Below, in pieces: positions 1,281-47,766 of a stretch of 58,107 bases of DNA. A program made the translations under genes and the position numbers. The notes beneath the pieces are model-generated. The model was not told where the DNA came from. It saw only the letters and a list, made by a program, of their open reading frames with translations, and searched no databases. The DNA is from an uncultured Arcobacter sp. (lineage in GTDB: Bacteria > Campylobacterota > Campylobacteria > Campylobacterales > Arcobacteraceae). The stretch lies in assembly GCA_964445915.1 (NCBI GenBank), contig CAYUNC010000001.1, forward strand, positions 1-58,107, in the 5' to 3' direction. Each line of letters starts with the position of its first letter. The first letter of the stretch is position 1.

Positions 1281-2242
1281 TAAGTGATATTCATATAGGA
1301 TTATGGCGTGATGACAAGAAAGGTCATAATTTGATTATGGACCTGTTTAGAGAAATAGCAGATTTATGCATCAAAAAAGATATTAAAAAAATAGCAATTT
1401 TAGGTGATCTATTTAACAATCGTAAGAGTTTAACATCTAATTCAAAAGACACAGCACTAGAAGTAGTGAATATATTGAAAAACTTTGAGTTAATTATTAC
1501 TAGTGGTAATCATGATATATATTATAATAATTCTTATTCACCAAATTGGTTAGAACTTTTTTATTATTACGATAATATTACTGTAGTCGATAAAGAGCCT
1601 TATTTTATAAATGATTGTTGTTTTGTTCCTTGGGGATATCCTATAGACACTATTGAACATAATGGTTATCTTTTTGGTCATTTTGAGATAAATTCTTTTA
1701 TGATGAACGATAGCTTCGAATGTACCAAAGCTAAATTAAATATCAGTGATTTTAAAAAATTTAAACATGTCTATTCAGGACATTTCCATCATCCATCTAC
1801 AAAAAATAATATAACTTATCTTGGAAGTCCTTTTCAGCATAATTTTGGTGATTGTGAAAGTAAAAGAGGATATTACATATTTATCAATGGTAATATTGAA
1901 TTTATCGAGTTTACTTCTGCACCAAAATTTATTATATTAAAACCAGAGGATAATATAGCAAAAGAAAATATAGAAAACAATTTTGTTAAGATGATTTTTA
2001 ACAGTAATAATGTTAATAAGGCAGACAAACTAATTTCATTGATTGAATCTTTTAAACCGCTATCATTAGATATTAAAGTGATTAAGAATGAAACTGTAAA
2101 TCAAAAAATATTAGAAGAGGAGGGAAAAACTAATAAAGAAATTTATATGGAGTTTGTAGAAAAGAATAAACCGGATTATATAGATTATAAGTTAATAGAT
2201 AAAGTGTTTGATTCAATTCTAAAGGATATTAATTTCGTATGA
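1271..2242 (+). CDS. Mre11/SbcD-type nuclease (T4 gp47-like)
   Basis: Phosphoesterase motifs DIHIG, GDLF, GNHD and GHFH. Overlaps the downstream Rad50-like gene by 4 nt, as in the T4 47/46 pair. Confidence 0.85.
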   Translation: MLLISDIHIGLWRDDKKGHNLIMDLFREIADLCIKKDIKKIAILGDLFNNRKSLTSNSKDTALEVVNILKNFELIITSGNHDIYYNNSYSPNWLELFYYYDNITVVDKEPYFINDCCFVPWGYPIDTIEHNGYLFGHFEINSFMMNDSFECTKAKLNISDFKKFKHVYSGHFHHPSTKNNITYLGSPFQHNFGDCESKRGYYIFINGNIEFIEFTSAPKFIILKPEDNIAKENIENNFVKMIFNSNNVNKADKLISLIESFKPLSLDIKVIKNETVNQKILEEEGKTNKEIYMEFVEKNKPDYIDYKLIDKVFDSILKDINFV

Positions 2243-4332: not shown

Positions 4333-4398
4333 CTGTATATGATCACAATTGGTATATCTGGTATTTTAGTATATGTCTGGTAATTACATTTCTAATAG

Positions 4399-4455
4399 AA
4401 AGGAGGGATGCTGTTTTCTTTTCAGTATTTATACTGAAGTCTCCACGGCATATAT
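4399..4455 (+). promoter_or_regulatory. Split-SD leader hairpin L1
   Basis: AAAGGAGG at 4399..4406. Helices GCTGT/ACGGC (one G:U) and TTCAGTA/TACTGAA. CATATATATG precedes the start at 4456. Confidence 0.6.
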
Positions 4456-5562
4456 ATGATAGAAGTTATTAATAAAGATTGTATGATAGGATTAAAGGAA
4501 TTATCAGATAATTCTGTTGATAGTGTTGTTACTGATCCACCCTATGGTATGAAATTTATGAACAAAAAATGGGACTATAATGTTCCTGGTATAGAAATGT
4601 GGAAGGAATGTTTAAGAATTTTAAAACCAGGTGGTCATATTTTAGTAGCATGCGGTACAAAAACACAACATAGGATGGCTATTAATATAGAAAATGCTGG
4701 TTTTGAAATAAGAGATTTAATTGCTTGGATATATAGTCAAGGGTTTCCAAAAAACACAAATGTAAGTAAAAAAATTACTAAAAATATGAATCAAAATAAG
4801 GCAAGACAATGGGAAGGATGGGGAACTGCGTTAAAACCTGCATTAGAATTATGGACTTTAGCTAGAAAACCATTATCAGAAAAAACAATTGCTGATAATA
4901 TATTAAAATGGGGTACTGGTGGATTAAATATTGATAAGACCAGAGTTCCAGTAAATGAAAAACTTGATAGTGAAGAAAACTTGAAAACTAGCGATGTTGT
5001 TCTGTCTTCTAAAAAAGGTAGGTATCCATCTAATGTTATTCATGATGGATCCGATGACGTGTTTGGACTATTTCCTAAAACAAAAAAAGGATGGGGAAAA
5101 AACACAACTGGCATAAAGAAAGGATTAGGCTCAATATTTGGTATAGGTGGGTATAGTGAAACAGAAAGATATGATTCAGGATCAGGATCAGCAGCAAGAT
5201 TCTTTTACTGTGCTAAACCATCTAAAAGTGAAAGAAATATAGGATTAGATGATTTTCCTGAAAAGATAGTTACAGATGGTTCAACAAGAAAAAATAAAAA
5301 AACAGCAGCGAAATATCAGGCAAATTCAGCTAAAAGAAAAAATATTCATCCGACTGTTAAGCCAGTTAAACTAATGAGATATCTATGTAAATTAGTAACA
5401 CCTCCTAATGGTATAGTTGTTGATCCATTTATGGGCAGTGGCAGCACAGGTATAGCTGCGTTAGTAGAAGGTTTTAATTTCATAGGATTTGAAATAGAGA
5501 AAGAATATTTTAATTTAGCTAAAGCTAGAATAGACTATTTAGTATTTCAGTTAGGTAATTGA
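4456..5562 (+). CDS. DNA N6-adenine/N4-cytosine methyltransferase
   Basis: DPPYG near the N-terminus and FMGSGSTG near the C-terminus (beta-class motif order). Preceded by leader copy L1. Confidence 0.85.
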   Translation: MIEVINKDCMIGLKELSDNSVDSVVTDPPYGMKFMNKKWDYNVPGIEMWKECLRILKPGGHILVACGTKTQHRMAINIENAGFEIRDLIAWIYSQGFPKNTNVSKKITKNMNQNKARQWEGWGTALKPALELWTLARKPLSEKTIADNILKWGTGGLNIDKTRVPVNEKLDSEENLKTSDVVLSSKKGRYPSNVIHDGSDDVFGLFPKTKKGWGKNTTGIKKGLGSIFGIGGYSETERYDSGSGSAARFFYCAKPSKSERNIGLDDFPEKIVTDGSTRKNKKTAAKYQANSAKRKNIHPTVKPVKLMRYLCKLVTPPNGIVVDPFMGSGSTGIAALVEGFNFIGFEIEKEYFNLAKARIDYLVFQLGN

Positions 5563-5599
5563 AACATAAACAAAACAATAAAATTGAAAGGAGTTTATT

Positions 5600-5776
5600 A
5601 TGGAACTACAAAAATTTAATCCAAATTCAATAGAATTTGTAAATGCTTGGGCTGCAGCAATTAAAGAAGCATGCCAAAAACTTAATTTTGATGTTCGATG
5701 TATTGATTGGTTTAGCTACACTCCTGATTTTTTTATCAAACAAAAAAATCTTTTGTCTACTCATAACTATAATTAG
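5600..5776 (+). CDS. Small hypothetical protein (58 aa, below the ORF-track cutoff)
   Basis: AAAGGAG lies 8 nt upstream of the ATG. Fills an otherwise empty gap between genes. Confidence 0.5.
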   Translation: MELQKFNPNSIEFVNAWAAAIKEACQKLNFDVRCIDWFSYTPDFFIKQKNLLSTHNYN

Positions 5777-5814
5777 TCAATTTTAAATAAAGCTTATCAA
5801 AACAAGGAGAATTT

Positions 5815-6042
5815 ATGTCTAAGTTAGCTTTTAATGGTGTAATAAGTGGTGATGGTGAGTGTTTTTGTTTCTTAGTTGACAGAAAAACTTTCGTTGAAAT
5901 AATTAAAAAGGAACCAAGAAAGTATGACAAATCACACAAAAAGGATTATTACAAGTTATACCCAGATGATGTGTTTAAAAATATTTTAGGATCATATTCC
6001 AATAGAGAAGATTTAAAAATCAGTATTGAGGTTGAACAGTGA
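5815..6042 (+). CDS. Hypothetical protein
   Basis: AAGGAG upstream. GTGA start/stop overlap with the next ORF. Confidence 0.55.
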   Translation: MSKLAFNGVISGDGECFCFLVDRKTFVEIIKKEPRKYDKSHKKDYYKLYPDDVFKNILGSYSNREDLKISIEVEQ

Positions 6043-6236
6043 ATAATAAATATTTCAAAACTTATAGACAAATTGTGTTGTCTTATCCGTTGTTTGAAGA
6101 TTATTTAAATAATATTTTAGGTCCTGATGGTAAATACTTTGGCTGGTATTTAGTTTCTGTACATTCATTTGAACATTTAAATGGGTCTTGTAAATATGTA
6201 GCTACTATAGCTAAAGAAGTTTTTTATGAGAATTAA
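6039..6236 (+). CDS. Hypothetical protein
   Basis: GTG start overlapping the preceding stop codon. Confidence 0.5.
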   Translation: MNNKYFKTYRQIVLSYPLFEDYLNNILGPDGKYFGWYLVSVHSFEHLNGSCKYVATIAKEVFYEN

Positions 6237-6265
6237 AAAATCAAAATTAATTATATTTCTAGTAG

Positions 6266-6322
6266 AAAGGAGGGATGTTGTTTTTATTTCGGTATTCATA
6301 CCGGAATGAAAACGACGTATAT
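6266..6322 (+). promoter_or_regulatory. Split-SD leader hairpin L2
   Basis: AAAGGAGG at 6266..6273, loop GGTATTCATACC, then ACGACGTATATATGATG. Confidence 0.6.
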
Positions 6323-6640
6323 ATGATGAAAATTTCATTTGTAAAAAATAAATCACCAGTTTTAGTAAAAGGTAATTACAAAAATTATAAAATTGGGTTT
6401 TTAGGTCGATGGAGTAATTGGTGCTTTGTTGCCTCAAAAAATCAAGATATAGATGTTATATTAAATAAGTTTGGTATTGTATCTGATCTTGATGGTGATA
6501 TGAAGCTTTATGGTTATTGGGATTTCAAAGATAAAAGTGGATATGGGTCTTCTTATATGCCAAAAAGGATAGCTGTAAAATTAATTAAAAAATGTTTACG
6601 TCAGTTTGTAAAAGAGCAAATGTTAAAATTAAACAGTTAG
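6323..6640 (+). CDS. Hypothetical protein (start moved to ATGATG after leader L2)
   Basis: The ORF-track start at 6275 lies inside the leader hairpin. The conserved CATATATGATGAAA places the start at 6323. Confidence 0.6.
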   Translation: MMKISFVKNKSPVLVKGNYKNYKIGFLGRWSNWCFVASKNQDIDVILNKFGIVSDLDGDMKLYGYWDFKDKSGYGSSYMPKRIAVKLIKKCLRQFVKEQMLKLNS

Positions 6641-6681
6641 TGTTTACGTAATTTGTATTACCCGTTTATGGAGATTAATTG

Positions 6682-7803
6682 ATGTCAACATTTAGTGATT
6701 TAAGAAGAAAGATTGATAAATCAGTCAAAGGCGTTCATATATCAATTCTAGCTGATAGTGAAATTGCAAAAATTGATCAATGGATACAAGCACCAACATA
6801 CGATTTTAATAGAATTTTGTCTGGGTCATTGAAAAAAGGTATTCCTGTTAAATCTCATGTAGTAATGGTTGGACCAGAAGCATCATTTAAAACAAGCTAT
6901 ATATGTCTTTTATTAGTTGATGCCTTAAGAAAAGGGCTAAAACCGGTTATTATAGATACTGAAGGATCATGGACTAATTCTTTTGTAGAAAGATGGGGTT
7001 TAGATCCAAGAAAGGTACTTTATATTTATACTCCTTTCACAACAGAAGCTATGACAGTGCTTAGCACCATAAGAGAATCAGATGAAGAAGGATTTGCTAT
7101 CGCTGTTGATTCTATAGGAGGTTTAGAGAGAAAAAAGTTGTTTGATGATACTCTAAGAGGAGATCATAAAGCAGATCAAGGTATCCTACAAAAAGAAATA
7201 AAACAGTTATTGAAAATGTTAGTTAATATTTGCAAATCTAAAAAATCAATAGCATTTTCTTCTGCACATTATTATGGTGATCCATCTGGTTATGGTTCAC
7301 CTGAAAAAGTTGGTGGTGGAAAATACTTAAAGTTATCGGCCGATATTCTTATTAGTCTTAAAAAATATGATATAAAGGAAATAATTGATGGTAAAAGTGT
7401 CATAACTGGAACTGGTTTGACAGCTTGTACTCTAAAAAACAGATTCTATCCTCCATTTAATGAAACTGAGATTGAAATAAACTATATTAGCGGTATAAAT
7501 AAGTACGTTGGTTTATTGAATATTTGTAAAACTGCTGGTATTATCGAACAAAAAGGAGCTTGGTATACATATCTCAAAACTGGTTGCAAATTTTGTGGTG
7601 TTAAAGAAGTAATGAAATTCTTTGAGTCAAATAAAGATATTATTGATGAAATTGATGAATATGTTAAAAATACTGGTTATAGTAATATAAATTATGAAGC
7701 TGCCAAGTTATATAATAAAGAATCGAAAAAAAATGATGACGAGAAAGAAGAAGAAAAAATAAGAATCAAAAAAATAAAAAAAGATAAAGAAGGAGTAGAT
7801 TAA
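6682..7803 (+). CDS. uvsX: RecA/UvsX-family recombinase
   Basis: Walker A GPEASFKTS, Walker B-like AIAVDSIGG, and RecA-like length. Confidence 0.7.
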   Translation: MSTFSDLRRKIDKSVKGVHISILADSEIAKIDQWIQAPTYDFNRILSGSLKKGIPVKSHVVMVGPEASFKTSYICLLLVDALRKGLKPVIIDTEGSWTNSFVERWGLDPRKVLYIYTPFTTEAMTVLSTIRESDEEGFAIAVDSIGGLERKKLFDDTLRGDHKADQGILQKEIKQLLKMLVNICKSKKSIAFSSAHYYGDPSGYGSPEKVGGGKYLKLSADILISLKKYDIKEIIDGKSVITGTGLTACTLKNRFYPPFNETEIEINYISGINKYVGLLNICKTAGIIEQKGAWYTYLKTGCKFCGVKEVMKFFESNKDIIDEIDEYVKNTGYSNINYEAAKLYNKESKKNDDEKEEEKIRIKKIKKDKEGVD

Positions 7804-8628: not shown

Positions 8629-8637
8629 CTTCAGTCT

Positions 8638-16947: not shown

Positions 16948-16959
16948 AGGGAGGATTAA

Positions 16960-26008: not shown

Positions 26009-26067
26009 CTTTAACCACAAATTTCTGGTTTTTAATCAAAAACAATTTAAATATTTCATGTTAGTCA

Positions 26068-29941: not shown

Positions 29942-29969
29942 ATACCAGAGTTTCCACGGCGCATATGTG
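29910..29969 (+). promoter_or_regulatory. Split-SD leader hairpin L8 (overlaps the 3' end of the HAD gene)
   Basis: AAAGGAGG at 29910..29917, loop GGTATGAATACC, then CGGCGCATATGTGATG. Confidence 0.6.
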
Positions 29970-33720: not shown

Positions 33721-35496
33721 TTATGGGGTAGATTTCATTAAACCATTGTTTCTTAAAATTTTTAATATAAAGTTTACCTTTTCCTCTAAATCTAAAAGTG
33801 TATCATAAACATCACTTCTAATTGTTTCATTTTTCGGTCCTGCTGCACTGACCGGTACAGTTACTGTAGCATCTTCTATGTAGTGATATGGATATAATTT
33901 AACAACATTTCCTTCTGACATCATAAAATGCGGACAATCATAACCACCACCAGCTGAAACTACATCAGAATACATTATAAATTCATCTGCATTACTACCT
34001 GTTGGTGCAACAGATGCACTTTTCATAAATAATGCTCCACTGACATCAACAGGATCTAATGCACCATTTATTAAAATATTGCTTAATTCATCAATTTTTA
34101 AAGTAGTGGAACTTCCTTCTTTAAATGTTATACCACCGTTTATTGATCTAATTTCATCTGTATCTATTTCAGTGAATGTTGCCGATGTTGGAATATTTTT
34201 TCCTATAATAGTATTATCTATCTTACCGCCATAAATGTAAACGTCATTTATAATAGCTGCTGATGCTTCCATTGTATCAACAATAATATCAGTAAATGTT
34301 GCTGATGCTGGTGTAGTTATTCCTATAACAGTGTTATCTATCTTACCGCCATAAATGTAAACGTCATTTATAATAGCTGCTGATGCTTCCATTGTATCAA
34401 CAATAATATCAGTAAATGTTGCTGATGCTGGTGTAGTTATTCCTATAACAGTGTTATCTATATTACTATCTTTTATAATACTATCAGTTATATCAACACT
34501 ATTTAAAATACCATTAAGAACTGTAATATCAGCAGCATCTAAATATGTAAAAGAACCGGCAGCCGGTACGACATCACCTATGACAGTATTTTCTATTCTA
34601 CCACCACTTATTATTGCAGTTGAATTAACAAGTAGTGTATCTGTCTCTATATCAGTAAAACTACCATTAGTAGCATTGTAAGTTGTAGCAGTAATTGTTG
34701 TAAATGTACCAGCAGCAGGCACACTGCCTCCTATTACAGTACCATCAATATAACCACCATCAACATTAACATTATCAATTTCTACCTCACCACCATCTTT
34801 TATAATTAATCCTAAACTGGCTGAATCATCCAAAAGACTTAATCCTTCAGAATCTCTAGCTTGAATATATTCAGCCTCAATTTTTTTATTTTCACCTATA
34901 TCCCAGTTGCCTGTTAATTCTCTGGTACCATCAGTTTTAATATATTGAGAATGATCATCATCTCTTGGTGATAAATTATTCCAATGTCTATATGCATCAT
35001 AAATCAATCTATTACTTACAAGTTTATTCTTGGTTGTATTGGTATTAGACTCATCAACTGATGATATATTATGTGGAGAATCAGAATAAGTCGAATCAAC
35101 ATGATCTTGCCATTCCTTTGCATTAGCATTACTTATACTTCTTATTTTTAATGTATTTGTATCCGATACATTGACTTCATAATGTTCACCAAATATTTGA
35201 ACATTATCAATTTCACCTGAATCTATACCAGCTTTAGCCCATGTTACTTTAAACTCCTGATTATATTCATAACCATAAGTCGAACTTTCAGCTTTATCAG
35301 CAACATAAAAATAAAATTTACCACTAGAATCAGTTGTAATAGAAACATTTGCTGTAGTATTAAAACTGGATGTCTTTGATGGATATCTTATATATGCATA
35401 AGTGCTTGTTCCAGCTAAATATACATTTATAGTAGCACCAGAAATAGGAATTCCTGTTTGATCAACTAAATACTGCCAAAAAATTCTATTTGCCAT
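33721..35496 (-). CDS. Tail fibre-like protein with ~40-aa NTVIG...PAxGxFT repeats
   Basis: Five degenerate 40-aa repeats, two of them identical at nucleotide level. TATAAATA lies 30 nt upstream. Confidence 0.65.
   Translation of the reverse strand: MANRIFWQYLVDQTGIPISGATINVYLAGTSTYAYIRYPSKTSSFNTTANVSITTDSSGKFYFYVADKAESSTYGYEYNQEFKVTWAKAGIDSGEIDNVQIFGEHYEVNVSDTNTLKIRSISNANAKEWQDHVDSTYSDSPHNISSVDESNTNTTKNKLVSNRLIYDAYRHWNNLSPRDDDHSQYIKTDGTRELTGNWDIGENKKIEAEYIQARDSEGLSLLDDSASLGLIIKDGGEVEIDNVNVDGGYIDGTVIGGSVPAAGTFTTITATTYNATNGSFTDIETDTLLVNSTAIISGGRIENTVIGDVVPAAGSFTYLDAADITVLNGILNSVDITDSIIKDSNIDNTVIGITTPASATFTDIIVDTMEASAAIINDVYIYGGKIDNTVIGITTPASATFTDIIVDTMEASAAIINDVYIYGGKIDNTIIGKNIPTSATFTEIDTDEIRSINGGITFKEGSSTTLKIDELSNILINGALDPVDVSGALFMKSASVAPTGSNADEFIMYSDVVSAGGGYDCPHFMMSEGNVVKLYPYHYIEDATVTVPVSAAGPKNETIRSDVYDTLLDLEEKVNFILKILRNNGLMKSTP
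34201..34440 (-). repeat. Near-exact 120-bp tandem duplication inside the fibre gene
   Basis: 34201..34320 versus 34321..34440 differ only in the first ~15 nt. Encodes the 40-aa IDNTVIGITTPASATFTDIIVDTMEASAAIINDVYIYGGK twice. Confidence 0.9.
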
Positions 35497-35540: not shown

Positions 35541-38500
35541 TTATTCTATACCAACTCTACATAAATAAGTATCCTCTAAATAATAATATATAAAAATACA
35601 TTTGCCGTTACTTACAACCATACCTTCACCCAAATCATCATAATATAACGGATATGACCAGCCAACCCATTCACCGATTTCAGGAAACTGATCATCAAAA
35701 TCAGTACTTTTAATCCAAGTTTTACCATAATCAGTAGAATAAAATAATTCACCAGATTCGGACCCAGTTATACTTATACATACACCATTACCTAAATTAC
35801 ATAATTTATATATACTATTAACTCTAGTATCGACATCACCGGTTTTAGTCCAACTTTCACCATAATCAGTAGATCTGTAAATTTTTGCAGGATAATATTC
35901 ACCTCCACATATAATTACTCCATTACCAAGACTAATCATATCATCTATTACACCAGTACCAATTGGATCATATAATATAGACCAACTTTCTCCGTAATCA
36001 GTAGATTTGTATATATCAGATGGATACTTCACAGCTAAAACAATACCATTTCCACAATATATTGCTGATGAAATACTAATGTAACCAGTAAAAGGCAATA
36101 CACCACTCCAGCTTTCTCCGTAATCAGTAGATCTCATAATATTATAATCACCATCATTGGAAAATAGTATACATATACCATTTTCCAGATAAATAATTCG
36201 CTCGACACAAGTTGATGATCCATTTATTGTTCCAGAACTAACCCATGTTTCACCATAATCAGTTGATCTATAAACTTCAGGATCATAATAATAAGAAAAA
36301 GCTAAAATTTTACCGTCACCCATATTCACAAAATCATAATAATATGATGTATGAAAATAAGGACTTAAAGATTCCCATGTATCGCCATAATCAGTAGATA
36401 AATACATATTATAATCTACATCAACAACTATAATATGATCATTACCAACATAATACATATACCAAGGATTAATATAACCACCACTAATTGATTTAAAATA
36501 ATTCCAGGTTATGCCGTTATCATCTGACTTCCAAATATGTTTATTAACTGCTGATTTACATATGGCTAATAATTGGTTATCCTTACCCTTCATAACATTC
36601 CTAAAATAAAGATTTTTTTCTTTTAATCCTTCAAGATGATTATCTGTCCATGTTGAACCACCATCATTAGAAATTCTAACACTACCAAAAGTTCCATAAT
36701 CAGAACCAGCAAAAACTTTTCCGCTTCCATATGATAATTTTCCTAAATCGTCAACTTGAGATAAAGCATTCCATGTTTCACCATAATCAGTTGATTCTCT
36801 AATATAATAATAAGGAGAATTATATTGATAAGCTAAAACTTTACCACCCCCAAGATTACAGTATGATCTCGGTTTTTTATTCAAACTACACATTATTCCT
36901 TTATCAATCCAAGTAACACCATAATCAGTAGATTTAAAATAATGATATGTATTCGATGGTGATTCTATTGTTGCAATACAGTGACCATTGTCTAAATAAG
37001 CTATTTCTTCTACCTCAAAATAAGTTCCGCTGGATGGTAATGTTAAAGTCCACGTATCACCATAATCAGTAGATCTCCATATACGATCTTTAAATGATGA
37101 TTCTTCAAAAGCTGCTATACATATACCATTACCTAGATAAACTGGTGATTCATTTGTTAACTTTTCACTAACACTATCAACTATACTCCAAGAAGTACCA
37201 CCATCAGTAGATTTTATTAAAAAATTGTCTCCACTTAATCCTAAAAATATACTATCTGTTAAGTACGTAAAAGATGGTGAGCTACTATTATCGCCTAAAA
37301 GAAGTGGATCTTCAGTTAAATTCCATGTATTACCATAATCAGTAGATATATAAACACCTTCATCTTCATACCATGTACCTAAAAATATAACACCGTTATT
37401 CATATATGATATTCTGACATAATTAGTACCTTTACTGGCTTTAAATATACTCTCCCATGTATTTCCAGCATCATTTGATCTTAACACGTGACCGAGCCAG
37501 CAATCACAAAAAACAACATCATTGTCAGCATAAATTATTTGATACACATCACCATAATAATTATATCTATTAACGTTTAAGAAAAATTCTGGTGCGGAAG
37601 GTGGAACAACCAACAATGCTCTACCTTTAGTTTTATATTCAAAATCTATCTTAACAATGTTTTCATCAATTATAGTTGTTGTTTTTGGTCTTAAAAGATA
37701 GTAATCATTGTCATAACATTGTATAATTAAATCTGTTGTATTAAGATTATGTGCTATAGTCCAGGATAAAGAATTAACAGGTGTGTAATAATTTACAGCA
37801 CATAGACCATTTAAACTATGATCAATACTCCAAGTATCAGTTGGATCTACTTGTTCATGAATATAAGTACCACTTACAGCTGTACTAACCGTGTATAAGT
37901 TACCAGCATTAGTATCACATTCTATTATTGCTGTATTACTACCAGATGGTGCTATAGACAATGGTACAATAGCTGTTTGTACATATCTATCTTCTAATGA
38001 ATATAAATCAACATCTTTTGTACTATCTAATATTTTTTTTTGTATTTCTATTATTGGTGCTTCTTGATTTCTATTATGATAGAACAATAAGTTATAATCA
38101 TTACTTATATAATACACTTCTGGTTTTATTATAAAAACATAACCAGTACAAGTTGTATTAAATTCCAGTATTACTTTATAATAAATATGTGAATCACCAT
38201 CACCATCTACATAAATTAAAGTATCATTTTTAATACTTTTTGGTACTAATAAATTGTAATTGATATCATAACATTGGACTATAGGATTTTTAGTATCTAA
38301 ACCATGTACTATATACCAAGTACTCTTTGGTATATATTGCATATAAATGTAACAACCGTCTTCTGGTATTGCAAACCCACCTATAGATACAGTAGAGCAA
38401 TTTGTATATCCAGGATCTGAGCAAGAACTAGGGCATACTGAATAGCAATATAAATAATTATAGTCTATAAAGTGTGGTAAAGGTGGTCCTGTTATATTCT

Positions 38501-39326
38501 TGTCATGCCATCTTTCATATATGTTTACGCCATTTTTTGTATTAAAAACAATATTTTTAAAATTTACAAAAATGGATGAATAAGTACCAACTCTTTTTAA
38601 GTAATTAATGTGGTTTGCGGTCAAACTTCTTTTTATTATTTCAGGTAACTCATTATCAACAGTCATTTTATAAGTAGAGTCAATATAAGCTAGGTGGTGT
38701 TCATTGACTTCATATGGATCAAAAAGGGTAAATACGTTCTTCTGTTGGTTGTATACTTCATTATATACCTTATCAAAAAATACACTAAATAATTCTTTCA
38801 ACCTTGTTGTTCTATTATGTTCTGGTAAACAACTTAAAGCATATTCATCCATTCCTCTGTAACGTACTTTATAAATATTTGATGAATTTGTAGGATGTAT
38901 TTCACCAAAGTACAAAAACACCTTCTCCATATTAACAAAATTTTCTACGTTGTGACTGTAATTACCAGCTTCATAATCAGTTTGTCTGGACTCTAAATAA
39001 TTATAAAACTCACTGTTTTTCATAAAGTAAGCTTTATCACCATAATCAATAGCAAATCCAGATGTGGACGCTGTCTCACTACTGGTAACTCTTTCAAAAT
39101 AAAACCACTCACTGTTATTTCCGTAGTTATACTTAGTAAAAGGTATTACATAGAAACCAGCTGTATTACCATTCTCATCTATATCAAATATGGTCATATT
39201 AAATACAGACCACCTGTTGGTAACAATACCTGTTGTTTGACCACGTAAGTAATTATCACCTGCTTCAGCATCAATGATAGATATAAAATCTTCTATTAAG
39301 AACCTAGGTATATCTGAAAACTTCAT
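35541..39326 (-). CDS. Baseplate/fibre protein, paralogue A: shared N-terminal module plus Asp-box (BNR) beta-propeller repeats
   Basis: The first 574 aa are identical to the gene at 41752..45642. The C-terminal half has about 14 S(T/N)D(Y/G)GxTW Asp-box motifs. Confidence 0.75.
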   Translation of the reverse strand: MKFSDIPRFLIEDFISIIDAEAGDNYLRGQTTGIVTNRWSVFNMTIFDIDENGNTAGFYVIPFTKYNYGNNSEWFYFERVTSSETASTSGFAIDYGDKAYFMKNSEFYNYLESRQTDYEAGNYSHNVENFVNMEKVFLYFGEIHPTNSSNIYKVRYRGMDEYALSCLPEHNRTTRLKELFSVFFDKVYNEVYNQQKNVFTLFDPYEVNEHHLAYIDSTYKMTVDNELPEIIKRSLTANHINYLKRVGTYSSIFVNFKNIVFNTKNGVNIYERWHDKNITGPPLPHFIDYNYLYCYSVCPSSCSDPGYTNCSTVSIGGFAIPEDGCYIYMQYIPKSTWYIVHGLDTKNPIVQCYDINYNLLVPKSIKNDTLIYVDGDGDSHIYYKVILEFNTTCTGYVFIIKPEVYYISNDYNLLFYHNRNQEAPIIEIQKKILDSTKDVDLYSLEDRYVQTAIVPLSIAPSGSNTAIIECDTNAGNLYTVSTAVSGTYIHEQVDPTDTWSIDHSLNGLCAVNYYTPVNSLSWTIAHNLNTTDLIIQCYDNDYYLLRPKTTTIIDENIVKIDFEYKTKGRALLVVPPSAPEFFLNVNRYNYYGDVYQIIYADNDVVFCDCWLGHVLRSNDAGNTWESIFKASKGTNYVRISYMNNGVIFLGTWYEDEGVYISTDYGNTWNLTEDPLLLGDNSSSPSFTYLTDSIFLGLSGDNFLIKSTDGGTSWSIVDSVSEKLTNESPVYLGNGICIAAFEESSFKDRIWRSTDYGDTWTLTLPSSGTYFEVEEIAYLDNGHCIATIESPSNTYHYFKSTDYGVTWIDKGIMCSLNKKPRSYCNLGGGKVLAYQYNSPYYYIRESTDYGETWNALSQVDDLGKLSYGSGKVFAGSDYGTFGSVRISNDGGSTWTDNHLEGLKEKNLYFRNVMKGKDNQLLAICKSAVNKHIWKSDDNGITWNYFKSISGGYINPWYMYYVGNDHIIVVDVDYNMYLSTDYGDTWESLSPYFHTSYYYDFVNMGDGKILAFSYYYDPEVYRSTDYGETWVSSGTINGSSTCVERIIYLENGICILFSNDGDYNIMRSTDYGESWSGVLPFTGYISISSAIYCGNGIVLAVKYPSDIYKSTDYGESWSILYDPIGTGVIDDMISLGNGVIICGGEYYPAKIYRSTDYGESWTKTGDVDTRVNSIYKLCNLGNGVCISITGSESGELFYSTDYGKTWIKSTDFDDQFPEIGEWVGWSYPLYYDDLGEGMVVSNGKCIFIYYYLEDTYLCRVGIE
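35640..37470 (-). repeat. About 14 Asp-box (SxDxGxTW) propeller-blade coding repeats
   Basis: Motifs STDYGxTW, SNDAGNTW, SDDNGITW and similar, at 40-50-aa spacing. Boundaries approximate. Confidence 0.75.
37603..39326 (-). repeat. 1,724-bp direct repeat, copy A
   Basis: No difference from 43919..45642 seen in the stretches compared by eye. The encoded 574 aa are identical. Confidence 0.85.
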
Positions 39327-39405
39327 TTATATAGCAGCTCCAATATAAGCATCAGAGAAAAAATAGATTTTCCCTTTGTTTTAATTTTTATGACGTAATG
39401 ATTGA

Positions 39406-41748
39406 TTAATTTTTTCTTATTATATAATGAACTGAAAATTCAACTTCTTTTGGTTTAAACAATTCACCATTTATATAAGTATAAAATAACATTGTATCAA
39501 ATTCATCAAATATTCCTATTTCTGTAATTTTTCTGTCATTTCTATCACATAAAATTGTTCCGTCTATATAGTAATTGTCTTCACATAAATTTTTTGTCAA
39601 TTTAGTCGTTAAAGCTACTTCATTTTTTAAACCAGAACCATTCCAATAAGGACCAGTAGTGCCTGTTCCAATTCTTATACTTTCTGCTCTTAAATACAAA
39701 GTACTTTGAGTATCTAAAGCACCAACTGCTTTAACTATAGCATATCCGCTTTCCGAATTATCAAAATAAATCTTACATTGGTTACTACTCACTAGAACAA
39801 TTCTATTTGGTATTAACATATTATCGTCGTTATAAGTTTGAACTATAACACCACGATAACCAAGATTATGTCTGACTGTCCATGTTGCTGTCGGTGAACT
39901 TTGTGTATGTAAATAATCATTATCTGATATATAAACTTTGCCTAATGCTTGAACATAAAGTTCTGCTTTTATATGATTATTATCTATAATTTCAACATTT
40001 TCAGGTAAAAACTGTTTTTCATATAAATCAAAATAATCAGATAAAACTTCTTCACCTATATTATGTTCAATATTACCCCATGTAGCTGATGCTTCAACTG
40101 TATTTGTATCAAAATCAGTAAAACCATATATTGACTTAGCGATCAAAACTACTCCAGATACAGCTTCCTTAAAATAAATTTTTATTCTATTATTAGATAC
40201 TATCAATATTTTATCAGGATATACTATTTCATACCCACTACCGGTCTTGCTGTAGCATTGAACTAAAATGTTATTTGTTAATAAATCATGATTTATATCC
40301 CATAAATTACTTTCTGTTAAGATAGGTTCGATATAATGAGCACTTAGTGTTACCGTTGTTGTATCTACACAACATTTAGTATATATATTTACAGGTGATT
40401 CAACATCATACAATGGTATGTATTCTTTACTAAAATCTGTGGTCGGTGATACTAGCCAGTGATAATGAGAATATTTACAAGCAGGTCTTGTTTCTTCCCA
40501 TGATTCAATTAATTGATTAGCATATTTTTCATTAATAATAAACTTATCAGAAGTTATTCCTTTATTATTAAGAGATATACATAACGGTTCACAAGAAAGG
40601 TCCAACTCCACTTTATAATGTGGTGACATTATTAGATTACCATGATATGGCAAAGAACTGACTTTTTTTAAACATGCAACACCATCAATATTTTCACTAA
40701 AAGTTGCTATACAGTTATTACTGTTTACTGTCTTATGAGTTTTTGGATAAGCTCTTTGTAATCCCCATCCAATATAAGTTGCTTTTTTACAAACTATATA
40801 GCCTTTTGTATCTCTAGCAAAAGTTACTGTAATGTTATTTTTATCTGTCAGTTGTAATGTTTTTGGTTCTTCTTTTTCACCAACCATTCCAACAACATCA
40901 GCTATTCTTACTAAAGCTATTCCAGTACAAGCATGATCAAGAGAAATTTTTACTATATCTTTACTAATATGTGTTATATTTGGATTTGATATTTTTACAT
41001 AACCAGCGCCGGACGTTTCATAAGTTTCCACAATAATATCATGATTTTCTAAATAGTGTTCAACATACCAAGTATTACTACTAACACTTTGTGTATGTAT
41101 TACATTACCTCTAAGAATATGCATATAGCCTTCTTTAGCAGAATCAAATTCTAAAGTAACACTATTTTTATCATTTAAATATATTTTATTTGGTTTAATT
41201 ATTGCGTCATTAGAATCTCTAGCTTGAACTATTATATCCCAGGTATTAAGATTGTGAGTTTCATTCCAAGTTGTTGAGCTGGATTCAGCAGAATAATAAG
41301 TAGCTTCTGCTATATGAACAGTACCTTTTTCTTCACCATCAAATCCAATATTTATATAGTTTTCATCAATAGATGCTGCTGACGGTGATATTACATTGTA
41401 TTCCGTATCATAACATTGAAATACAATATTTTTTGTATTAAGCCCATGGTAAATATACCAATTAGTACTTTTTCTAGGAACGTATACTTGCGTAATCAAA
41501 TGTCTATAATCTAAATTATGTTCTATATTCCATGTTGTACTAATTTCATCTATTCTTTCTTCATAATCAGCAGAAATAGCAAGAAAAGTTATATTACTAT
41601 AATCATCATTATACGTTTCTATATAAGTAGAATCAGCCGTATCAGTAAATTCCAAATTTATAGAAAACTGTTCTTTGTCACCAGTACTTTCATCGTAGTA
41701 ATCTGTTACTAAAAAATAACTATTAAGGTAATGCTCAATTAGTTTCAT
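39406..41748 (-). CDS. Fibre/baseplate protein built of repeated W-x-I-x-H-N-L beta-sandwich-like modules
   Basis: At least 7 repeats of the (S/T)xWx(I/V)xH(N/G)L...(I/V)VQxY... module. Confidence 0.65.
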   Translation of the reverse strand: MKLIEHYLNSYFLVTDYYDESTGDKEQFSINLEFTDTADSTYIETYNDDYSNITFLAISADYEERIDEISTTWNIEHNLDYRHLITQVYVPRKSTNWYIYHGLNTKNIVFQCYDTEYNVISPSAASIDENYINIGFDGEEKGTVHIAEATYYSAESSSTTWNETHNLNTWDIIVQARDSNDAIIKPNKIYLNDKNSVTLEFDSAKEGYMHILRGNVIHTQSVSSNTWYVEHYLENHDIIVETYETSGAGYVKISNPNITHISKDIVKISLDHACTGIALVRIADVVGMVGEKEEPKTLQLTDKNNITVTFARDTKGYIVCKKATYIGWGLQRAYPKTHKTVNSNNCIATFSENIDGVACLKKVSSLPYHGNLIMSPHYKVELDLSCEPLCISLNNKGITSDKFIINEKYANQLIESWEETRPACKYSHYHWLVSPTTDFSKEYIPLYDVESPVNIYTKCCVDTTTVTLSAHYIEPILTESNLWDINHDLLTNNILVQCYSKTGSGYEIVYPDKILIVSNNRIKIYFKEAVSGVVLIAKSIYGFTDFDTNTVEASATWGNIEHNIGEEVLSDYFDLYEKQFLPENVEIIDNNHIKAELYVQALGKVYISDNDYLHTQSSPTATWTVRHNLGYRGVIVQTYNDDNMLIPNRIVLVSSNQCKIYFDNSESGYAIVKAVGALDTQSTLYLRAESIRIGTGTTGPYWNGSGLKNEVALTTKLTKNLCEDNYYIDGTILCDRNDRKITEIGIFDEFDTMLFYTYINGELFKPKEVEFSVHYIIRKN

Positions 41749-41751
41749 TTC

Positions 41752-44700
41752 TTATGCAGGACCCCCATCTGTTATAGTCCAATTATTAGGTTCTCCTGTT
41801 AATGTATTCCTAGCTGCCTCTGCAGCACCACCAGGTGTATACTTACTGTTACCAGCATGAAAATTTACGTTTGGTTTAACTGATTGTGCTGCCCACCCTA
41901 TTAGTAATGCATCATAATTTGCTGTACTTAGGGTAACATTCTTAAACATATAACTCATATTAGTTACATTTGATATGTTCCAGTTACCTATGTTCTGATC
42001 AAATGATGTCGCATCTTCAAACATACATCTCATATTGGTTACACTGGATACATCCCAATTACTAATATCCTGGTTGAATGATGATGCATTTTTAAACATA
42101 TAACTCATATTGGTTACACTGGATACATCCCAATTACTAATATCCTGGTTGAATGATGTCGCACTTTCAAACATATAACTCATATTAGTTACACTGGATA
42201 CATCCCAATTACTAATATCCTGGTTGAATGATGATGCAATTTTAAACATACTATTCATATTAGTTACACTGGATACATTCCAGCTACCTATATTCTGATT
42301 GAACATTACTGCATTTCGAAACATACAGCTCATATTTGTTACTTTGGATACATTCCAGCTACCTATATCTTTATTAAATAAATCTGTGTACTGAAACATT
42401 CCGCACATATTTGTAACATTAGATACATTCCAGATACCTATATCTTGATTAAAACTATCTGCATTATAAAACATATAGCTCATATCTGTCACGTTGGATA
42501 CATTCCAGCTACTAATATCTTGATTAAATGCCGTCGCATCTTGAAACATATATCTCATATCGGTTACACTGGATACATCCCAGCTACCTATATCTTGATT
42601 AAAATTTTTTGCACCATTAAACATGTTATGCATATCAATTACACTGGATACATCCCAGCTACCTATATCTTGATTAAAATCTTGCGCACCATTAAACATA
42701 CTATCCATATCTATCACATTGGATACATTCCAGCTACCTATATTTTTATTAAATGATCTTGCATTATTAAACATACTACTCATATTGGTTACACTGGATA
42801 CATCCCAGTTATTAATATCTTGATTAAACGATGTTGCGTAATAAAACATCAACCTCATATTGGTTACACTGGATACATCCCAGCTACCTATGTTTTGATT
42901 AAATGACGTTGCATGATTGAACATACTACTCATATTGGTTACACTGGATACATCCCAGTTATTAATATCTTGATTAAACAATCTTGCGTAACAAAACATA
43001 TTATTCATATCTGTTACTTTTGACACATCCCAGCTGCCGATATCTTGATTAAATGATTTTGCATCATAAAACATTAAACTCATGTCAGTTACATTAGACA
43101 CAATCCAGCTACCTATGTCTTGATTAAAATCATCTGCACCACAGAACATATTATGCATATCAGTTACACTGGATACATCCCAGCTGCCGATATCTTGATT
43201 AAACTTATCTGCCTCATTAAACATACCACTCATATCAGTTACATTAGACACATCCCAACTACCAATATCTTGATTAAATGATCTTGCAAGACTAAAAACA
43301 GCAACAGCAAAAATAAGTGACTTAGTATTCCAGCTACTAATATTACCATTAAATTTCGATGAATCAAATAAATAATCCATATTAGTTACATTAGATACAT
43401 CCCAGTCATTAATATTAGGTATGTCAATTAGATCATCACATTTAAAAAACATGGAATATAAACTAGTCATATTAGATGTATTAGGAGTATCTGTTGCCGT
43501 CAGTATACCTGATGTATCTAAACCTAAATTAGTACAGTGACTAAAATAATATTTTTTGTGATTATTTGTTTCTAATATAACATTACCCCATTTTAGTATA
43601 TCTATCAGTTTTCTACTTTCTCCTAAACGTTCAAAATTGATACCTTTAATACCATTACCACCACTTTCTTCTAAATTTTCTCTTAATGTTACAACATACT
43701 TACCAGGTGTGTCATATGTATGAACTAATTTATTCTCATCATATCCGTTAAATTCTGTTGTACTATTATCACCCCAGTCTACTGTCATTATATAAGTACC
43801 ATCATCAACAAGAGGAAGTCTAAATTGATCACTATTACTACTACCGTAAAATGTCTTTGTTGTATCTATGTACATAATAAATTCAATAGGTGGAACAGGT
43901 GCTTCACCAGAAGGAGAAGGAACAACCAACAATGCTCTACCTTTAGTTTTATATTCAAAATCTATCTTAACAATGTTTTCATCAATTATAGTTGTTGTTT
44001 TTGGTCTTAAAAGATAGTAATCATTGTCATAACATTGTATAATTAAATCTGTTGTATTAAGATTATGTGCTATAGTCCAGGATAAAGAATTAACAGGTGT
44101 GTAATAATTTACAGCACATAGACCATTTAAACTATGATCAATACTCCAAGTATCAGTTGGATCTACTTGTTCATGAATATAAGTACCACTTACAGCTGTA
44201 CTAACCGTGTATAAGTTACCAGCATTAGTATCACATTCTATTATTGCTGTATTACTACCAGATGGTGCTATAGACAATGGTACAATAGCTGTTTGTACAT
44301 ATCTATCTTCTAATGAATATAAATCAACATCTTTTGTACTATCTAATATTTTTTTTTGTATTTCTATTATTGGTGCTTCTTGATTTCTATTATGATAGAA
44401 CAATAAGTTATAATCATTACTTATATAATACACTTCTGGTTTTATTATAAAAACATAACCAGTACAAGTTGTATTAAATTCCAGTATTACTTTATAATAA
44501 ATATGTGAATCACCATCACCATCTACATAAATTAAAGTATCATTTTTAATACTTTTTGGTACTAATAAATTGTAATTGATATCATAACATTGGACTATAG
44601 GATTTTTAGTATCTAAACCATGTACTATATACCAAGTACTCTTTGGTATATATTGCATATAAATGTAACAACCGTCTTCTGGTATTGCAAACCCACCTAT

Positions 44701-45642
44701 AGATACAGTAGAGCAATTTGTATATCCAGGATCTGAGCAAGAACTAGGGCATACTGAATAGCAATATAAATAATTATAGTCTATAAAGTGTGGTAAAGGT
44801 GGTCCTGTTATATTCTTGTCATGCCATCTTTCATATATGTTTACGCCATTTTTTGTATTAAAAACAATATTTTTAAAATTTACAAAAATGGATGAATAAG
44901 TACCAACTCTTTTTAAGTAATTAATGTGGTTTGCGGTCAAACTTCTTTTTATTATTTCAGGTAACTCATTATCAACAGTCATTTTATAAGTAGAGTCAAT
45001 ATAAGCTAGGTGGTGTTCATTGACTTCATATGGATCAAAAAGGGTAAATACGTTCTTCTGTTGGTTGTATACTTCATTATATACCTTATCAAAAAATACA
45101 CTAAATAATTCTTTCAACCTTGTTGTTCTATTATGTTCTGGTAAACAACTTAAAGCATATTCATCCATTCCTCTGTAACGTACTTTATAAATATTTGATG
45201 AATTTGTAGGATGTATTTCACCAAAGTACAAAAACACCTTCTCCATATTAACAAAATTTTCTACGTTGTGACTGTAATTACCAGCTTCATAATCAGTTTG
45301 TCTGGACTCTAAATAATTATAAAACTCACTGTTTTTCATAAAGTAAGCTTTATCACCATAATCAATAGCAAATCCAGATGTGGACGCTGTCTCACTACTG
45401 GTAACTCTTTCAAAATAAAACCACTCACTGTTATTTCCGTAGTTATACTTAGTAAAAGGTATTACATAGAAACCAGCTGTATTACCATTCTCATCTATAT
45501 CAAATATGGTCATATTAAATACAGACCACCTGTTGGTAACAATACCTGTTGTTTGACCACGTAAGTAATTATCACCTGCTTCAGCATCAATGATAGATAT
45601 AAAATCTTCTATTAAGAACCTAGGTATATCTGAAAACTTCAT
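41752..45642 (-). CDS. Baseplate/fibre protein, paralogue B: shared N-terminal module plus ~20 DUF285/BspA-like repeats
   Basis: The ATG at 45642 overlaps the gp6-like stop (TGATG). Contains 25-aa [16 protein letters not shown] repeats and the C-terminal [10 protein letters not shown] tail. Confidence 0.8.
41960..43440 (-). repeat. About 20 tandem 75-bp (25-aa) DUF285 coding repeats
   Basis: Periodic [25 protein letters not shown] units. Boundaries approximate. Confidence 0.8.
43919..45642 (-). repeat. 1,724-bp direct repeat, copy B
   Basis: See copy A. Identity ends exactly at the ATG on one side and after codon ~574 (..ALLVVP) on the other. Confidence 0.85.
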
Positions 45643-47369
45643 CAACTCTCAACTTCAATTATACAATCATCAATAGATATATATGGAAATTGATTATAAT
45701 TTATAATAATACTTCTCAATACATTCTCATCCCAGTCTGAATCAGTAGATCTAGCCCATTGTGGATATTTTTCTGATTTATAACTATATGGATCTAACCA
45801 AGAGTTAGAGTTAAAATCCCAAAAATCAATATTTCTTACAATCATAGCAGTTATACCTTTTACATTAGAAAAATTATCAGTGTCTGAAACTTCTGATGCA
45901 TCCTTTATGTAGTTTTCTATCTCATAAAAATTTAATGTTTCACCAAAATCTCTTGAAGATACACTAAAATAATATACTAATTTATTTTTTACATCATTAA
46001 TAACTTTTGCAGATTTATAATTACTCTTGATTTTTAAACCTATATCTATTCTAAAATATATAATTTCTGGTAGAGTATAGACTTCCCATGCACATAACAT
46101 TTTTCTTAATTCTAAATATTCCGCAATTTCTTGTACCCAATCTGGATTATATGCTATAGGCATAACTCTTTCTGTATTAGGATCGGACGCTGATGGTGAA
46201 TAACTGAGAGTATTGCTTCCCCATTCAGTAGGAATTAAACTAACGTAAACTTTATTATAATTGTCAATATCACCAGAAGGAGCAATTTCTTTTTCACCCC
46301 ATACATTAGCTTTAGCTATATCACTTCTTAGTTCTAAATAACTAACATAATCATTTTTAGTAACATTACGGTACTGTGCGTGTAATATTGCTGGTGCATT
46401 ATTTTTAATTTCGGTTATGCTCTCTGGATCCGATCCACCGGTTGCTTCAGTATAATTAGTTATAGTATAATATTCGCTATTTATAGTAATTCCTTTAGTA
46501 TTATTAGTTAACAAATCGTTATCTGGATATATTATAGTATTTTTAGCTACATTACCATTAGAACCTAAACTTTCTACAGCTGTTATTTTTATTGAGTCTG
46601 TGAAAGAAGGTACATTACGTGTATCTGAAAATTCAATTATATATCTTTTATACTTATCATATCTTAAAATATATACATTGTCTTCATCACTTAATCCAGA
46701 TAATTCATCATAAAAATCTGATATTCTAGTCCACTCTTCATCGTTAACTTCTACTTTTAAACTTGGATAATCATCATCAATGTTATCATCATATCCAAAA
46801 TTAATAAATGGCAAAACAATTTTATTATCTATTAAATCACTTCCAGTATATGTATATTCTTTTAATTTTCCTTGTCTAACTGGAATATCTGTTATAGTAA
46901 ATGTACCATAACTATTAACTGTACTGTCTATTGGATTAGTAGTTACAAAAGATATATTTTCATTATTATAGTTTTTTGTTGAAAGTAACTCCTTCCATGG
47001 TTCAACTCTTAAAATATCGTCTATATCAACTTCCCCTGCTGCTGATGCTGCTGATGTTATTAATGATAAAGTTATTGTTGTTCTAGATGACCTGTAACCA
47101 GCTGGATAATAACCAATTAAATTAACCAATCTACTAACAGTTTCATATAAATCAGCAGTATCTATATAACAATTCTTAGCTAATTTATTAATATAATAAG
47201 TACTTAATTCACCTAAATATGCCATCAATTCAATAAGAATTGTTATATTAGCACCTTCATAATTATAATCAGTAAAAACATCACTTTCACTCAGCTGGTC
47301 TATTATTTTCTGTTTTATAGTATTAAAATCAATATTTAAATAATCTGGAACGAGCGTGTTATTGCTCAT
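45642..47369 (-). CDS. Baseplate wedge protein (gp6/Baseplate_J-like)
   Basis: Size and position between the gp25-like gene and the fibre genes. No sharp motif. Confidence 0.55.
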
Positions 47370-47379: not shown

Positions 47380-47766
47380 TTATAACTGCTTTAAAATAAA
47401 GTTAACCTCACGAAAACTTTCAGATGAACCAAAACCTTTTATTGTAAAATTACAAGTTACGTCATATCTATTATAATCATGATTCGCAACAACTAACATT
47501 CTATCTATTATTATTCTGTCATCCCATGTTTCAATTGCTGATATTAAATGATGACCAAGTTTTTCAGCTGTTTTGCTATCTATTGGCTCAAAAAGAAGAT
47601 CATAACCATCAAATGCAAAAGTAGGAAGCATTCTTCTACTACCAGGTATAGTTAGTACTATGTTTGTTAAAGAATTAATAATAGCATCAACATCAGTATC
47701 TAACAACACATCACCATCTGATTGTTGTTTCAAATTAATATCTACATCTGCATAAATATTATTCAT
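47380..47766 (-). CDS. Baseplate wedge protein gp25/GPW-like
   Basis: 128 aa, with LTNIVLTIPGSRRMLPTFAF typical of the gp25/W family. Preceded by leader L11. Confidence 0.7.
   Translation of the reverse strand: MNNIYADVDINLKQQSDGDVLLDTDVDAIINSLTNIVLTIPGSRRMLPTFAFDGYDLLFEPIDSKTAEKLGHHLISAIETWDDRIIIDRMLVVANHDYNRYDVTCNFTIKGFGSSESFREVNFILKQL

Follow-up and report, generated by a model that had tools for sequence, protein, structure and literature searches.

The window analyzed here is an entire NCBI contig of 58,107 bp (CAYUNC010000001.1; ~29% G+C) from a metagenomic assembly filed under an uncultured Arcobacter sp. (GCA_964445915.1), and its source is an uncultivated low-GC phage with a T4-type contractile tail. 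The tail module occupies the minus-strand half. Its genes are transcribed from high to low coordinates in the order gp19-like tube, gp48/54-like, a 750-amino-acid (aa) VgrG3-C-like protein, gp53-like, gp5-like spike, carbon-nitrogen (CN) hydrolase, gp25-like, and gp6-like, followed by four genes that we call B, M, A, and D (a 591-aa fibre-like protein). Genes for recombination proteins (Mre11-like, Rad50/SMC-like, and RecA/UvsX-like) lie on the plus-strand half, together with those for two DNA methylases and a CCA-adding enzyme and with two tRNA genes. We describe here genes A and B, which begin with the same module (R) and continue into different C-terminal modules (Ac and Bc, respectively), together with gene M, which lies between them (Table 1).

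The two copies of R are direct repeats of 1,724 nt each, with 0 mismatches in a direct string comparison. They constitute the first 574 codons of both genes. The identity runs from the A of each ATG through the codons for ...KGRALLVVP (residue 574/575) and ends sharply, extending 0 nt further on either flank. An exact repeat of 1.7 kb cannot arise by chance. The initial annotation of this DNA had proposed two identical 5' modules of equal length with precisely these limits, and the comparison confirmed the proposal over all 1,724 positions. We set the start of gene B at its ATG, which fits the family consensus N terminus (MxKFSDxP); a mechanical list of open reading frames (ORFs) begins the gene one codon upstream, at a TTG.

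Table 1. Features of the window that are discussed in the text, with the evidence for each
Feature	Position	Strand	Basis
R copy 1, codons 1-574 of gene B	43919..45642	-	Exact identity to copy 2; family-profile domain map
R copy 2, codons 1-574 of gene A	37603..39326	-	1,724/1,724 identical to copy 1
Gene B, 1,296 aa: R, PKD-like linker, ~20 DUF285 repeats, C-terminal cap	41752..45642	-	ATG overlaps gp6-like stop by 1 nt
Bc, B-specific C-terminal module	41752..43918	-	Pfam DUF285; 75-nt periodic array; collinearity analysis
Gene A, 1,261 aa: R and 14 Asp-box blades	35541..39326	-	ORF, Pfam, motif count
Ac, A-specific C-terminal module, 14 Asp-box (BNR) blades	35541..37602	-	Pfam; motif count and spacing; R-to-Ac junction in contig L096
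Gene M, 780 aa, putative detached C-terminal half of ancestral wedge protein	39406..41748	-	Family profile; R+M collinearity; AlphaFold2 model
Spacer between M and A, 79 nt, novel duplication junction	39327..39405	-	GGAG 11 nt upstream of A ATG
gp6-like baseplate wedge subunit, putative two-copy partner in wedge trimer	45642..47369	-	Pfam Gp6-like_1st; phrog_219, E = 7e-56
gp25-like sheath-initiator/wedge protein	47380..47766	-	Pfam GPW_gp25; phrog_261
Fibre-like protein D, 591 aa, downstream of A	33721..35496	-	120-nt (40-aa) tandem repeats at 34166-34525
Recombination genes: Mre11-like (1271-2242), Rad50/SMC-like (2239-4332), RecA/UvsX-like (6679-7803)	1271..7803	+	Pfam; span includes DNA methylase

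Among 50,697 phage records, R had no match at either the DNA or the protein level. IMG/VR returned no match to the single protein and yielded relatives only to a profile, and the Joint Genome Institute (JGI) metagenomes were matched neither by R in a protein scan nor by an exact 30-mer taken from its 3' end. A word-indexed search yielded only two homologues, each ~730 aa long and each encoded directly after gp25-like and gp6-like genes. An exhaustive profile search extended the family to 2,618 proteins (E ≤ 1e-3).

The family profile divides R into an N-terminal core (N-core; aa 1 to 324) and a series of immunoglobulin (Ig)-like repeats (aa 325 to 572). Although residues 1 to 574 of A and B had no Pfam match, several lines of evidence bear on the nature of the core. 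A profile built from 24 N-core sequences and searched against the PDB matched "wedge protein gp32" of phage A-1(L) (8kea_c; E = 4.4e-5; 88 residues) and, more weakly, Tri2 of pyocin R2 (PA0619, 6u5b_0; E = 0.22). The AlphaFold2 model of the N-core (predicted local distance difference test score [pLDDT], 72) had as its top three Foldseek matches 9gtp_A, 9gb2_M, and 6u5b_0 (i.e., a Streptomyces contractile-injection baseplate, the phiCD508 baseplate, and pyocin Tri2, respectively), with probabilities of 0.87 to 0.97, E values of 0.06 to 0.17, and template modeling (TM) scores of 0.2 to 0.4. One family member (P0019) has an N-core that scores 20.8 bits against Pfam Tail_P2_I (PF09684; cut-off, 20.6). 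Finally, the gene order of the window (gp25-like, gp6-like, B) recurs for the homologues P0001 and P0002 and in L009, a contig of a close strain described below. On the basis of the profile and Foldseek matches, the Tail_P2_I member, and this synteny, R is likely, but not proven, to be the N-terminal half of a wedge subunit of the gp7/gpI/Tri2 type rather than a generic adaptor. The earlier suggestion that the shared part docks to the baseplate is thereby supported and also refined, given that the module would be part of the wedge itself.

The structure 8KEA is the baseplate of the Anabaena myophage A-1(L), which has six wedges, each containing a (gp31)2-gp32 heterotrimer (PMC10966104). gp32 is the single-copy, peripheral member of the wedge and helps to anchor the long fibre (PMC10966104). 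By analogy, the gp6-like protein and an R-type subunit would form a 2:1 heterotrimer in the virion. Because such a subunit is present six times per baseplate (i.e., once per wedge) in the solved homologues, competition between A and B for one site is the more likely of the two options raised in the initial annotation if R is a wedge subunit.

Beyond R, the two genes share no module. Ac contains exactly 14 Asp-box motifs (S-x-D-x-G-x-T/S-W) spaced 41 to 48 aa apart, which is enough for two 7-bladed beta-propellers. Its Pfam matches all exceed their cut-offs (Sortilin-Vps10, E = 1e-24 and 87.5 bits against a cut-off of 33; BNR, 46 bits; BNR_2, 47.7 bits; BNR_6, 42.5 bits). Bc sits exactly where single-chain homologues run into their next Ig-like domain. 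It consists of a weak PKD-like linker and an array of 19 clear and 1 degenerate 25-aa units with a strict 75-nt period, which matches Pfam DUF285 (PF03382) with an E value of 8e-218 (710 bits). These counts agree with the initial annotation, which had described about 14 Asp-box blades in A and a short linker followed by about 20 DUF285 repeats in B. Its statement that B is coupled to the gp6-like gene also holds; the TGA of the latter shares its A with the ATG of B.

Asp-box or DUF285 arrays were present in 0 of the best 150 family representatives. Some family members instead carry CBM_4_9, Laminin_G_3, or DUF2341 domains inserted between the N-core and the conserved C-terminal part (C-part), and the family thus appears to be a recurrent carrier of carbohydrate-binding domains. 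These insertions make a host-recognition role for Ac and Bc reasonable, and both modules may bind the host-cell surface. Homologues of Ac share at most 40% identity with it and are BNR-propeller proteins of sediment bacteria, archaea, and phage-like contigs. A PDB sequence search with Ac gave only weak matches, to a noncatalytic sortilin-related receptor (E ~3e-3), and the same search with Bc gave no match.

The modules could alternatively be enzymes (e.g., sialidase- or GH74-like depolymerases) or structural decoration. Asp-box propellers include sialidases and other glycosidases, Ac has a weak match to BNR_2, and DUF285 has no assigned function. However, the best Pfam match of Ac, Sortilin-Vps10, is noncatalytic, as is the sortilin-related receptor that provided its only PDB matches, and its homologues are annotated as photosystem II (PSII)-assembly-factor-like BNR proteins. 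Moreover, members of the wedge family carry carbohydrate-binding or lectin domains after the N-core, and depolymerase and binder roles are not mutually exclusive in tail proteins. We therefore consider it unlikely that Ac and Bc are something other than receptor binders, although Ac may also have depolymerase activity.

Both kinds of module also occur away from R. The best Ac homologue (P0159; 1,124 aa) is encoded in a phage-like contig (L094, 5047-11064), where two more BNR-propeller genes follow it and a glycosyltransferase lies nearby; BNR propellers may be a recurrent distal-tail module in uncultivated phages. Two stand-alone DUF285 proteins (243 and 250 aa) that lack the R module are encoded in tandem at 8285-9016 and 9167-9919 of L098, a longer contig of the same phage. 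A truncated DUF285 ORF at 3-455 (+) of the window, which has 85% DNA identity to the 3' end of Bc, is part of the 250-aa protein, and the window contig breaks inside this gene. The 3' ends of the stand-alone genes, through 9 nt past the stop, have 80 to 86% DNA identity to the 3' end of gene B, which suggests that DUF285 genes have exchanged sequence. In the sole long inverted repeat of the window (1-464 against 41743-42206), Bc is paired with a stand-alone DUF285 gene at a distance of 41 kb. In addition, an ORF-free stretch of the window at 9012-9155 (+) contains a lone 75-nt DUF285 unit (9063-9128) that is 73 to 82% identical to the units of gene B. This unit is enclosed by an ~18-bp stem (ACCAGGGTCTTC...GAAGACCCTGGT; RNA fold z-score, -4.7), and no reverse transcriptase or recombinase was found near it.

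Given two paralogues on one core, only one of them might function in the virion, the other (most likely A) being a spare cassette, a recombination donor, or a nonstructural secreted or decoy protein. B is tightly coupled to the gp6-like gene and to M, whereas A stands apart, with a weak ribosome-binding site after the 79-nt spacer. No full-length homologue of A at ≥90% identity was found in a collection of 15 billion proteins, and the two stand-alone DUF285 proteins, which have no anchor, indicate that not every such domain is virion bound. On the other hand, A is an intact ORF preceded by a GGAG, and Ac is 100% conserved in an independent assembly. A wedge core of 1.7 kb on a nonstructural protein would also be costly and, if expressed, would poison assembly. 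A single functional paralogue is accordingly quite unlikely in our judgment.

Gene M corresponds to the part of the family that A and B lack. Positions 332 to 722 of the family profile match residues 372 to 779 of M, which has extra Ig-like repeats at its N terminus. The protein consists of these Ig-like repeats, an alpha/beta segment with the motif "SPHY..ELDLS", three Ig-like domains, and a terminal domain resembling tail-fibre N-terminal and tail-collar domains. When R and M were joined (1,354 aa), they aligned to the single-ORF protein P0028 as one collinear high-scoring segment pair (residues 1 to 1295; 32% identity; 1,425 columns), and the same was true for P0014 and P0026. The seam between R and M is a boundary between two Ig-like domains. 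We scored ~90 related loci (i.e., the IMG/VR loci obtained with the core profile and other related loci) for split and duplication. The N-core and C-part were in one ORF in 66 of the 66 loci in which both could be scored, and no locus except the window was split or had two N-cores. The AlphaFold2 model of the C-part of M (pLDDT, 84) comprises an alpha/beta domain, three beta-sandwiches, and the terminal domain. In a comparison against BFVD, the terminal domain matched tail-collar fibre and "tail fibre N-terminal domain" proteins over ~105 residues (root mean square deviation, ~3 Å). A profile search of the PDB with the C-part gave no match, and Foldseek gave no meaningful PDB match for the multidomain model.

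The ATG of M follows the stop codon of B by 3 nt (TAA, GAA, ATG), with a G-rich stretch just upstream, and M looks translationally coupled to B on the basis of this arrangement. Fusion of B and M by read-through was rejected, as the stop codon of B (TAA) is the commonest in the window (38 of 58 genes) and neither of the two tRNAs present, Thr(TGT) and Ile(TAT), is a suppressor. That B and M are in the same frame is a one-in-three chance, and 10 neighboring gene pairs are likewise in frame. A scan of 33 to 48 kb revealed no terminator and no convincing promoter in the spacer between M and A, and this region had fewer promoter-like sites than shuffled sequence. Neither microhomology nor flanking repeats marked the R/Bc, Bc/M, or M/R junction or the 79-nt spacer, where the only matches were AT-rich and attributable to chance.

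Independent assemblies of close strains were recovered by exact-protein look-ups; the related contigs derive from metagenomes. In ERZ23491060, one contig (L009) runs from the tube gene through the gp6-like gene and stops 55 nt into R, and another (L012) runs through Bc, M, and the spacer and also stops 55 nt into R. In ERZ27227322, which was assembled with a k-mer length (k) of 141, contig L010 crosses Bc, M, and the spacer and covers 402 nt of R, while the 55-kb contig L096 opens with exactly the last 141 nt of R and runs through Ac and beyond. Contig L011 (JGI 3300013103) crosses M and the spacer and stops 120 nt into R, and L013 (ERZ2433807) extends from within the spacer through 769 nt of R. 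The M-to-R junction was thus present in at least four other samples (L010, L011, L012, and L013). A true repeat in a de Bruijn graph is expected to leave contig ends k - 1 or k bases inside it, and such ends were seen in R from three flanks. Furthermore, because Bc needs an upstream N terminus and M precedes R, any genome with Bc-M-R must hold two copies of R. We take the duplication to be real, and the arrangement seen in the window is the single linear path by which all of the observed junctions can be used. L013, in which unrelated sequence follows the 769 nt of R, was considered as an alternative arrangement and was treated as a low-coverage chimera (coverage, ~2; higher G+C content; no match to the window).

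The other strains differed from the window by 0.19 to 0.75% (0.19 to 0.64% outside R), and R itself contained 6 single nucleotide polymorphisms (SNPs) in the 769 nt covered by L013. Without homogenization, ~4 to 13 differences would be expected between the two copies in 1,724 nt; the observed number was 0, synonymous sites included. Since the duplication junction is common to strains that are 0.19 to 0.75% apart, the duplication predates their divergence. An older duplication with no differences between its copies favors gene conversion, which would also explain why the identity fills the whole homologous tract to its edges. The RecA/UvsX-, Mre11-, and Rad50-like gene products would be the agents of this homogenization. 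The initial annotation had argued that zero divergence implies either recency or gene conversion. This argument stands, and the junction shared by strains 0.2 to 0.8% apart shifts the balance to conversion.

A real but very recent duplication, whose copies have not had time to diverge, would need no gene conversion. It accounts for the absence of even synonymous differences, and the duplication occurs in no other of the ~90 related loci, which makes it young relative to the family as a whole. Nevertheless, it is older than the split of the sampled strains, and the ~4 to 13 differences expected since then are missing. R is also not mutation-proof, as it varies between strains (i.e., the SNPs of L013 and a patch in L010 described below). 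Recency as the sole cause of the identity is therefore improbable, and we favor gene conversion.

Over 11,043 nt, and across the whole of Ac and M, the ERZ27227322 strain matches the window at 100% identity. In this otherwise identical strain, positions 2813 to 2855 of L010 (i.e., window 39108-39150, R nt 177 to 219) contain 14 substitutions in 43 nt that are linked to copy A (GGAGATAATAATTCTAATGAA against AACTACGGAAATAACAGTGAG) and change 10 residues to KYGDNNSNEW. The patch resembles a short recombination tract and would lie in a surface loop of the wedge core. Either the two copies differ and were collapsed by the assembler of the window, or the population is polymorphic at the patch.

The patch also bears on an assembly artefact, in which two strain variants were misjoined or one consensus was pasted twice, and the phage has one R or two nonidentical copies. 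The window is a metagenomic contig, short reads cannot span an exact repeat of 1.7 kb, and an assembler would fill both places alike. L010 reaches 402 nt into R, more than k - 1, and its patch hints at copy-specific differences. Against an artefact, the M-spacer-R junction was found in four other samples, the gp6-to-R and R-to-Ac junctions were found in independent assemblies whose contigs end exactly 55, 55, and 141 nt inside R, and two copies are required in any genome with Bc-M-R. Taking these observations together, we regard an artefact as very unlikely.

We propose the following history and function for a genuinely duplicated wedge module. An ancestral single-chain wedge gene, composed of the N-core, Ig-like repeats, and the conserved C-part, would have been cut exactly at an Ig-domain boundary. 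Its front half (R) would have been duplicated, with the first copy fused to the DUF285 array (B) and the second to the 14-blade Asp-box module (A), and the back half would be made separately as M, which would supply the conserved distal part in trans. Sharing the wedge core, A and B would compete for the six single-copy positions, one per wedge, and baseplates would then display a mix of two surface-binding modules. Gene conversion through the phage RecA/UvsX-, Mre11-, and Rad50-like system would keep the cores identical and equally compatible with the gp6-like partner. Deletion mediated by the repeat would be selected against because it would also remove Bc and M. Given that the segment homologous to M is present in every relative scored, Bc-M deletants are probably inviable, and the placement of M between the repeats probably locks the arrangement. 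Of the readings considered, this chain as a whole (i.e., the shared core, competition for six positions, M in trans, gene conversion, and the deletion lock) is the best supported, and we hold it to be moderately probable. Its stronger form, in which the six positions are filled randomly by A or B to give mosaic baseplates, with the cores kept alike by concerted evolution and deletion lethal through M, is a tentative suggestion and rather doubtful.

Several observations weigh against this proposal. The similarity of the N-core to solved wedge subunits is weak, as the values above for the gp32 and Foldseek matches indicate (88 residues; E = 0.06 to 0.17; TM, ~0.2 to 0.4; pLDDT, 72). The incorporation of A, B, and M into virions is deduced from homology only, and the proposal does not account for how M, which has no covalent linkage to B or A, is attached. 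The zero divergence of the R copies rests on one assembly, which is also the only one in which the R-to-Bc junction was recovered, and, given the copy A-linked patch of L010, the two cores may not be strictly identical. As for the binding modules, DUF285 has no demonstrated function, and Asp-box propellers can be enzymes instead of binders.

The single-chain wedge subunits are among the nearest known systems. T4 gp7, P2 gpI, pyocin R2 Tri2, and A-1(L) gp32 resemble the genes described here in following directly after gp25-like and gp6-like genes and, for gp32 and Tri2, in the profile similarity of the core. However, each is one gene and one chain, whereas the gene of the window is split and its N-terminal half is duplicated, with each copy fused to a large repeat domain. 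The closer relatives P0028, P0014, P0019, and P0075 have the same N-core, Ig-like repeats (with the motif "W.I.H.L....V.VQ.YD"), and C-part as the window, but these are contained in one ORF with one copy of the core rather than split and with two cores.

In functional terms, the nearest analogies are the invertible segments of phages Mu and P1 and the phages with several receptor-binding proteins. Two alternative C-terminal host-range parts behind a constant N-terminal tail part are also encoded by the G segment of phage Mu and the C segment of P1, in which the constant Sc is joined to Sv or Sv' through inversion by Gin or Cin. In Mu and P1, there is one constant part, and inversion yields one form per virion; in the window, the constant part is duplicated as direct repeats and both genes are intact. 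An invertible segment of this type was rejected for the window because the R repeats are direct, the Pfam-scanned ORFs include no invertase or recombinase, and no inverted repeats flank the C-terminal parts. A diversity-generating retroelement was likewise rejected, as there was no reverse transcriptase in the scanned ORFs of the contig and the R copies show no differences.

Phages with several receptor-binding proteins on conserved N-terminal anchors include CBA120 with its tailspikes, K1-5 and SP6 with their dual tailspikes, and the Klebsiella depolymerase phages. Their anchors are short and diverged, and they attach fibres or spikes to an adaptor or to the periphery of the baseplate. Unlike these anchors, the shared part in the window comprises 574 aa, is 100% identical at the DNA level, and would be a core wedge subunit with a fixed stoichiometry of six. 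Swaps of C-terminal domains between genomes behind near-identical N termini, through recombination at domain boundaries, are well documented (PMC10684548). We found no report of a duplicated gp7-type subunit in the literature, our coverage of which was incomplete.

Phages vary their host range through C-terminal domain swaps between genomes, through several fibres on adaptors, and through DNA inversion. The locus described here suggests a fourth layout, in which duplication of a core wedge subunit of fixed stoichiometry provides two copies, each with a different binding domain. This layout predicts compositionally heterogeneous baseplates from one genome. If baseplates are mosaic, one burst would release virions of differing receptor valencies, which would amount to bet-hedging on host range. 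The locus would also provide natural examples of a large structural protein that was split where two domains meet and whose pieces are still collinear with single-chain relatives, of apparent concerted evolution of a 1.7-kb repeat in a recombination-proficient phage, and of a presumably essential gene whose position would guard a perfect direct repeat against deletion. In this family, the Ig-domain boundary that follows residue 574 would be a tolerated fusion point for foreign binding modules in phage engineering.

Other features of the minus strand include the CN hydrolase gene (nitrilase superfamily; 47880-48869), which is flanked by the spike region and the gp25-like gene. A baseplate cluster is an unusual place for such an enzyme, and the gene is conserved in L009. 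Protein D, the fibre-like protein downstream of A, is one repeat unit shorter (551 aa) in L096 and L097, which are assemblies of nearly identical strains. A Mom-like gene is located at 57474-58058 (-).

On the plus strand, a conserved leader of ~95 nt precedes at least six genes (4379-4473, 6246-6340, 11239-11333, 20827-20921, 26048-26142, and 29890-29984), and a partial copy is present at 13961-13993. The leader consists of the invariant AAAGGAGG, a hairpin of ~42 nt with compensatory changes in 6 of its 14 pairs, and then ATATATGATG, which includes the start codon. It looks like either a shared regulatory element or, as in T4 gene 38, a split ribosome-binding site in which the fold brings the Shine-Dalgarno sequence near the AUG. 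A noncoding repeat of ~260 nt with many potential stems occurs at 9259-9510 and 12761-13021 (+), with copies that are 86 to 89% identical, and a weaker copy lies near 8700-8850. The same repeat is found at 6877-7169 and 18723-18959 of L098, and it had no Rfam match. A GC-rich island at 16000-19100 (+; G+C fraction, 0.42 to 0.46 against a background of 0.29) holds a C5 cytosine methylase gene (17724-19097) and is probably a recent acquisition. Farther along the same strand is an MTTB-like gene (trimethylamine methyltransferase family; 22736-23968).

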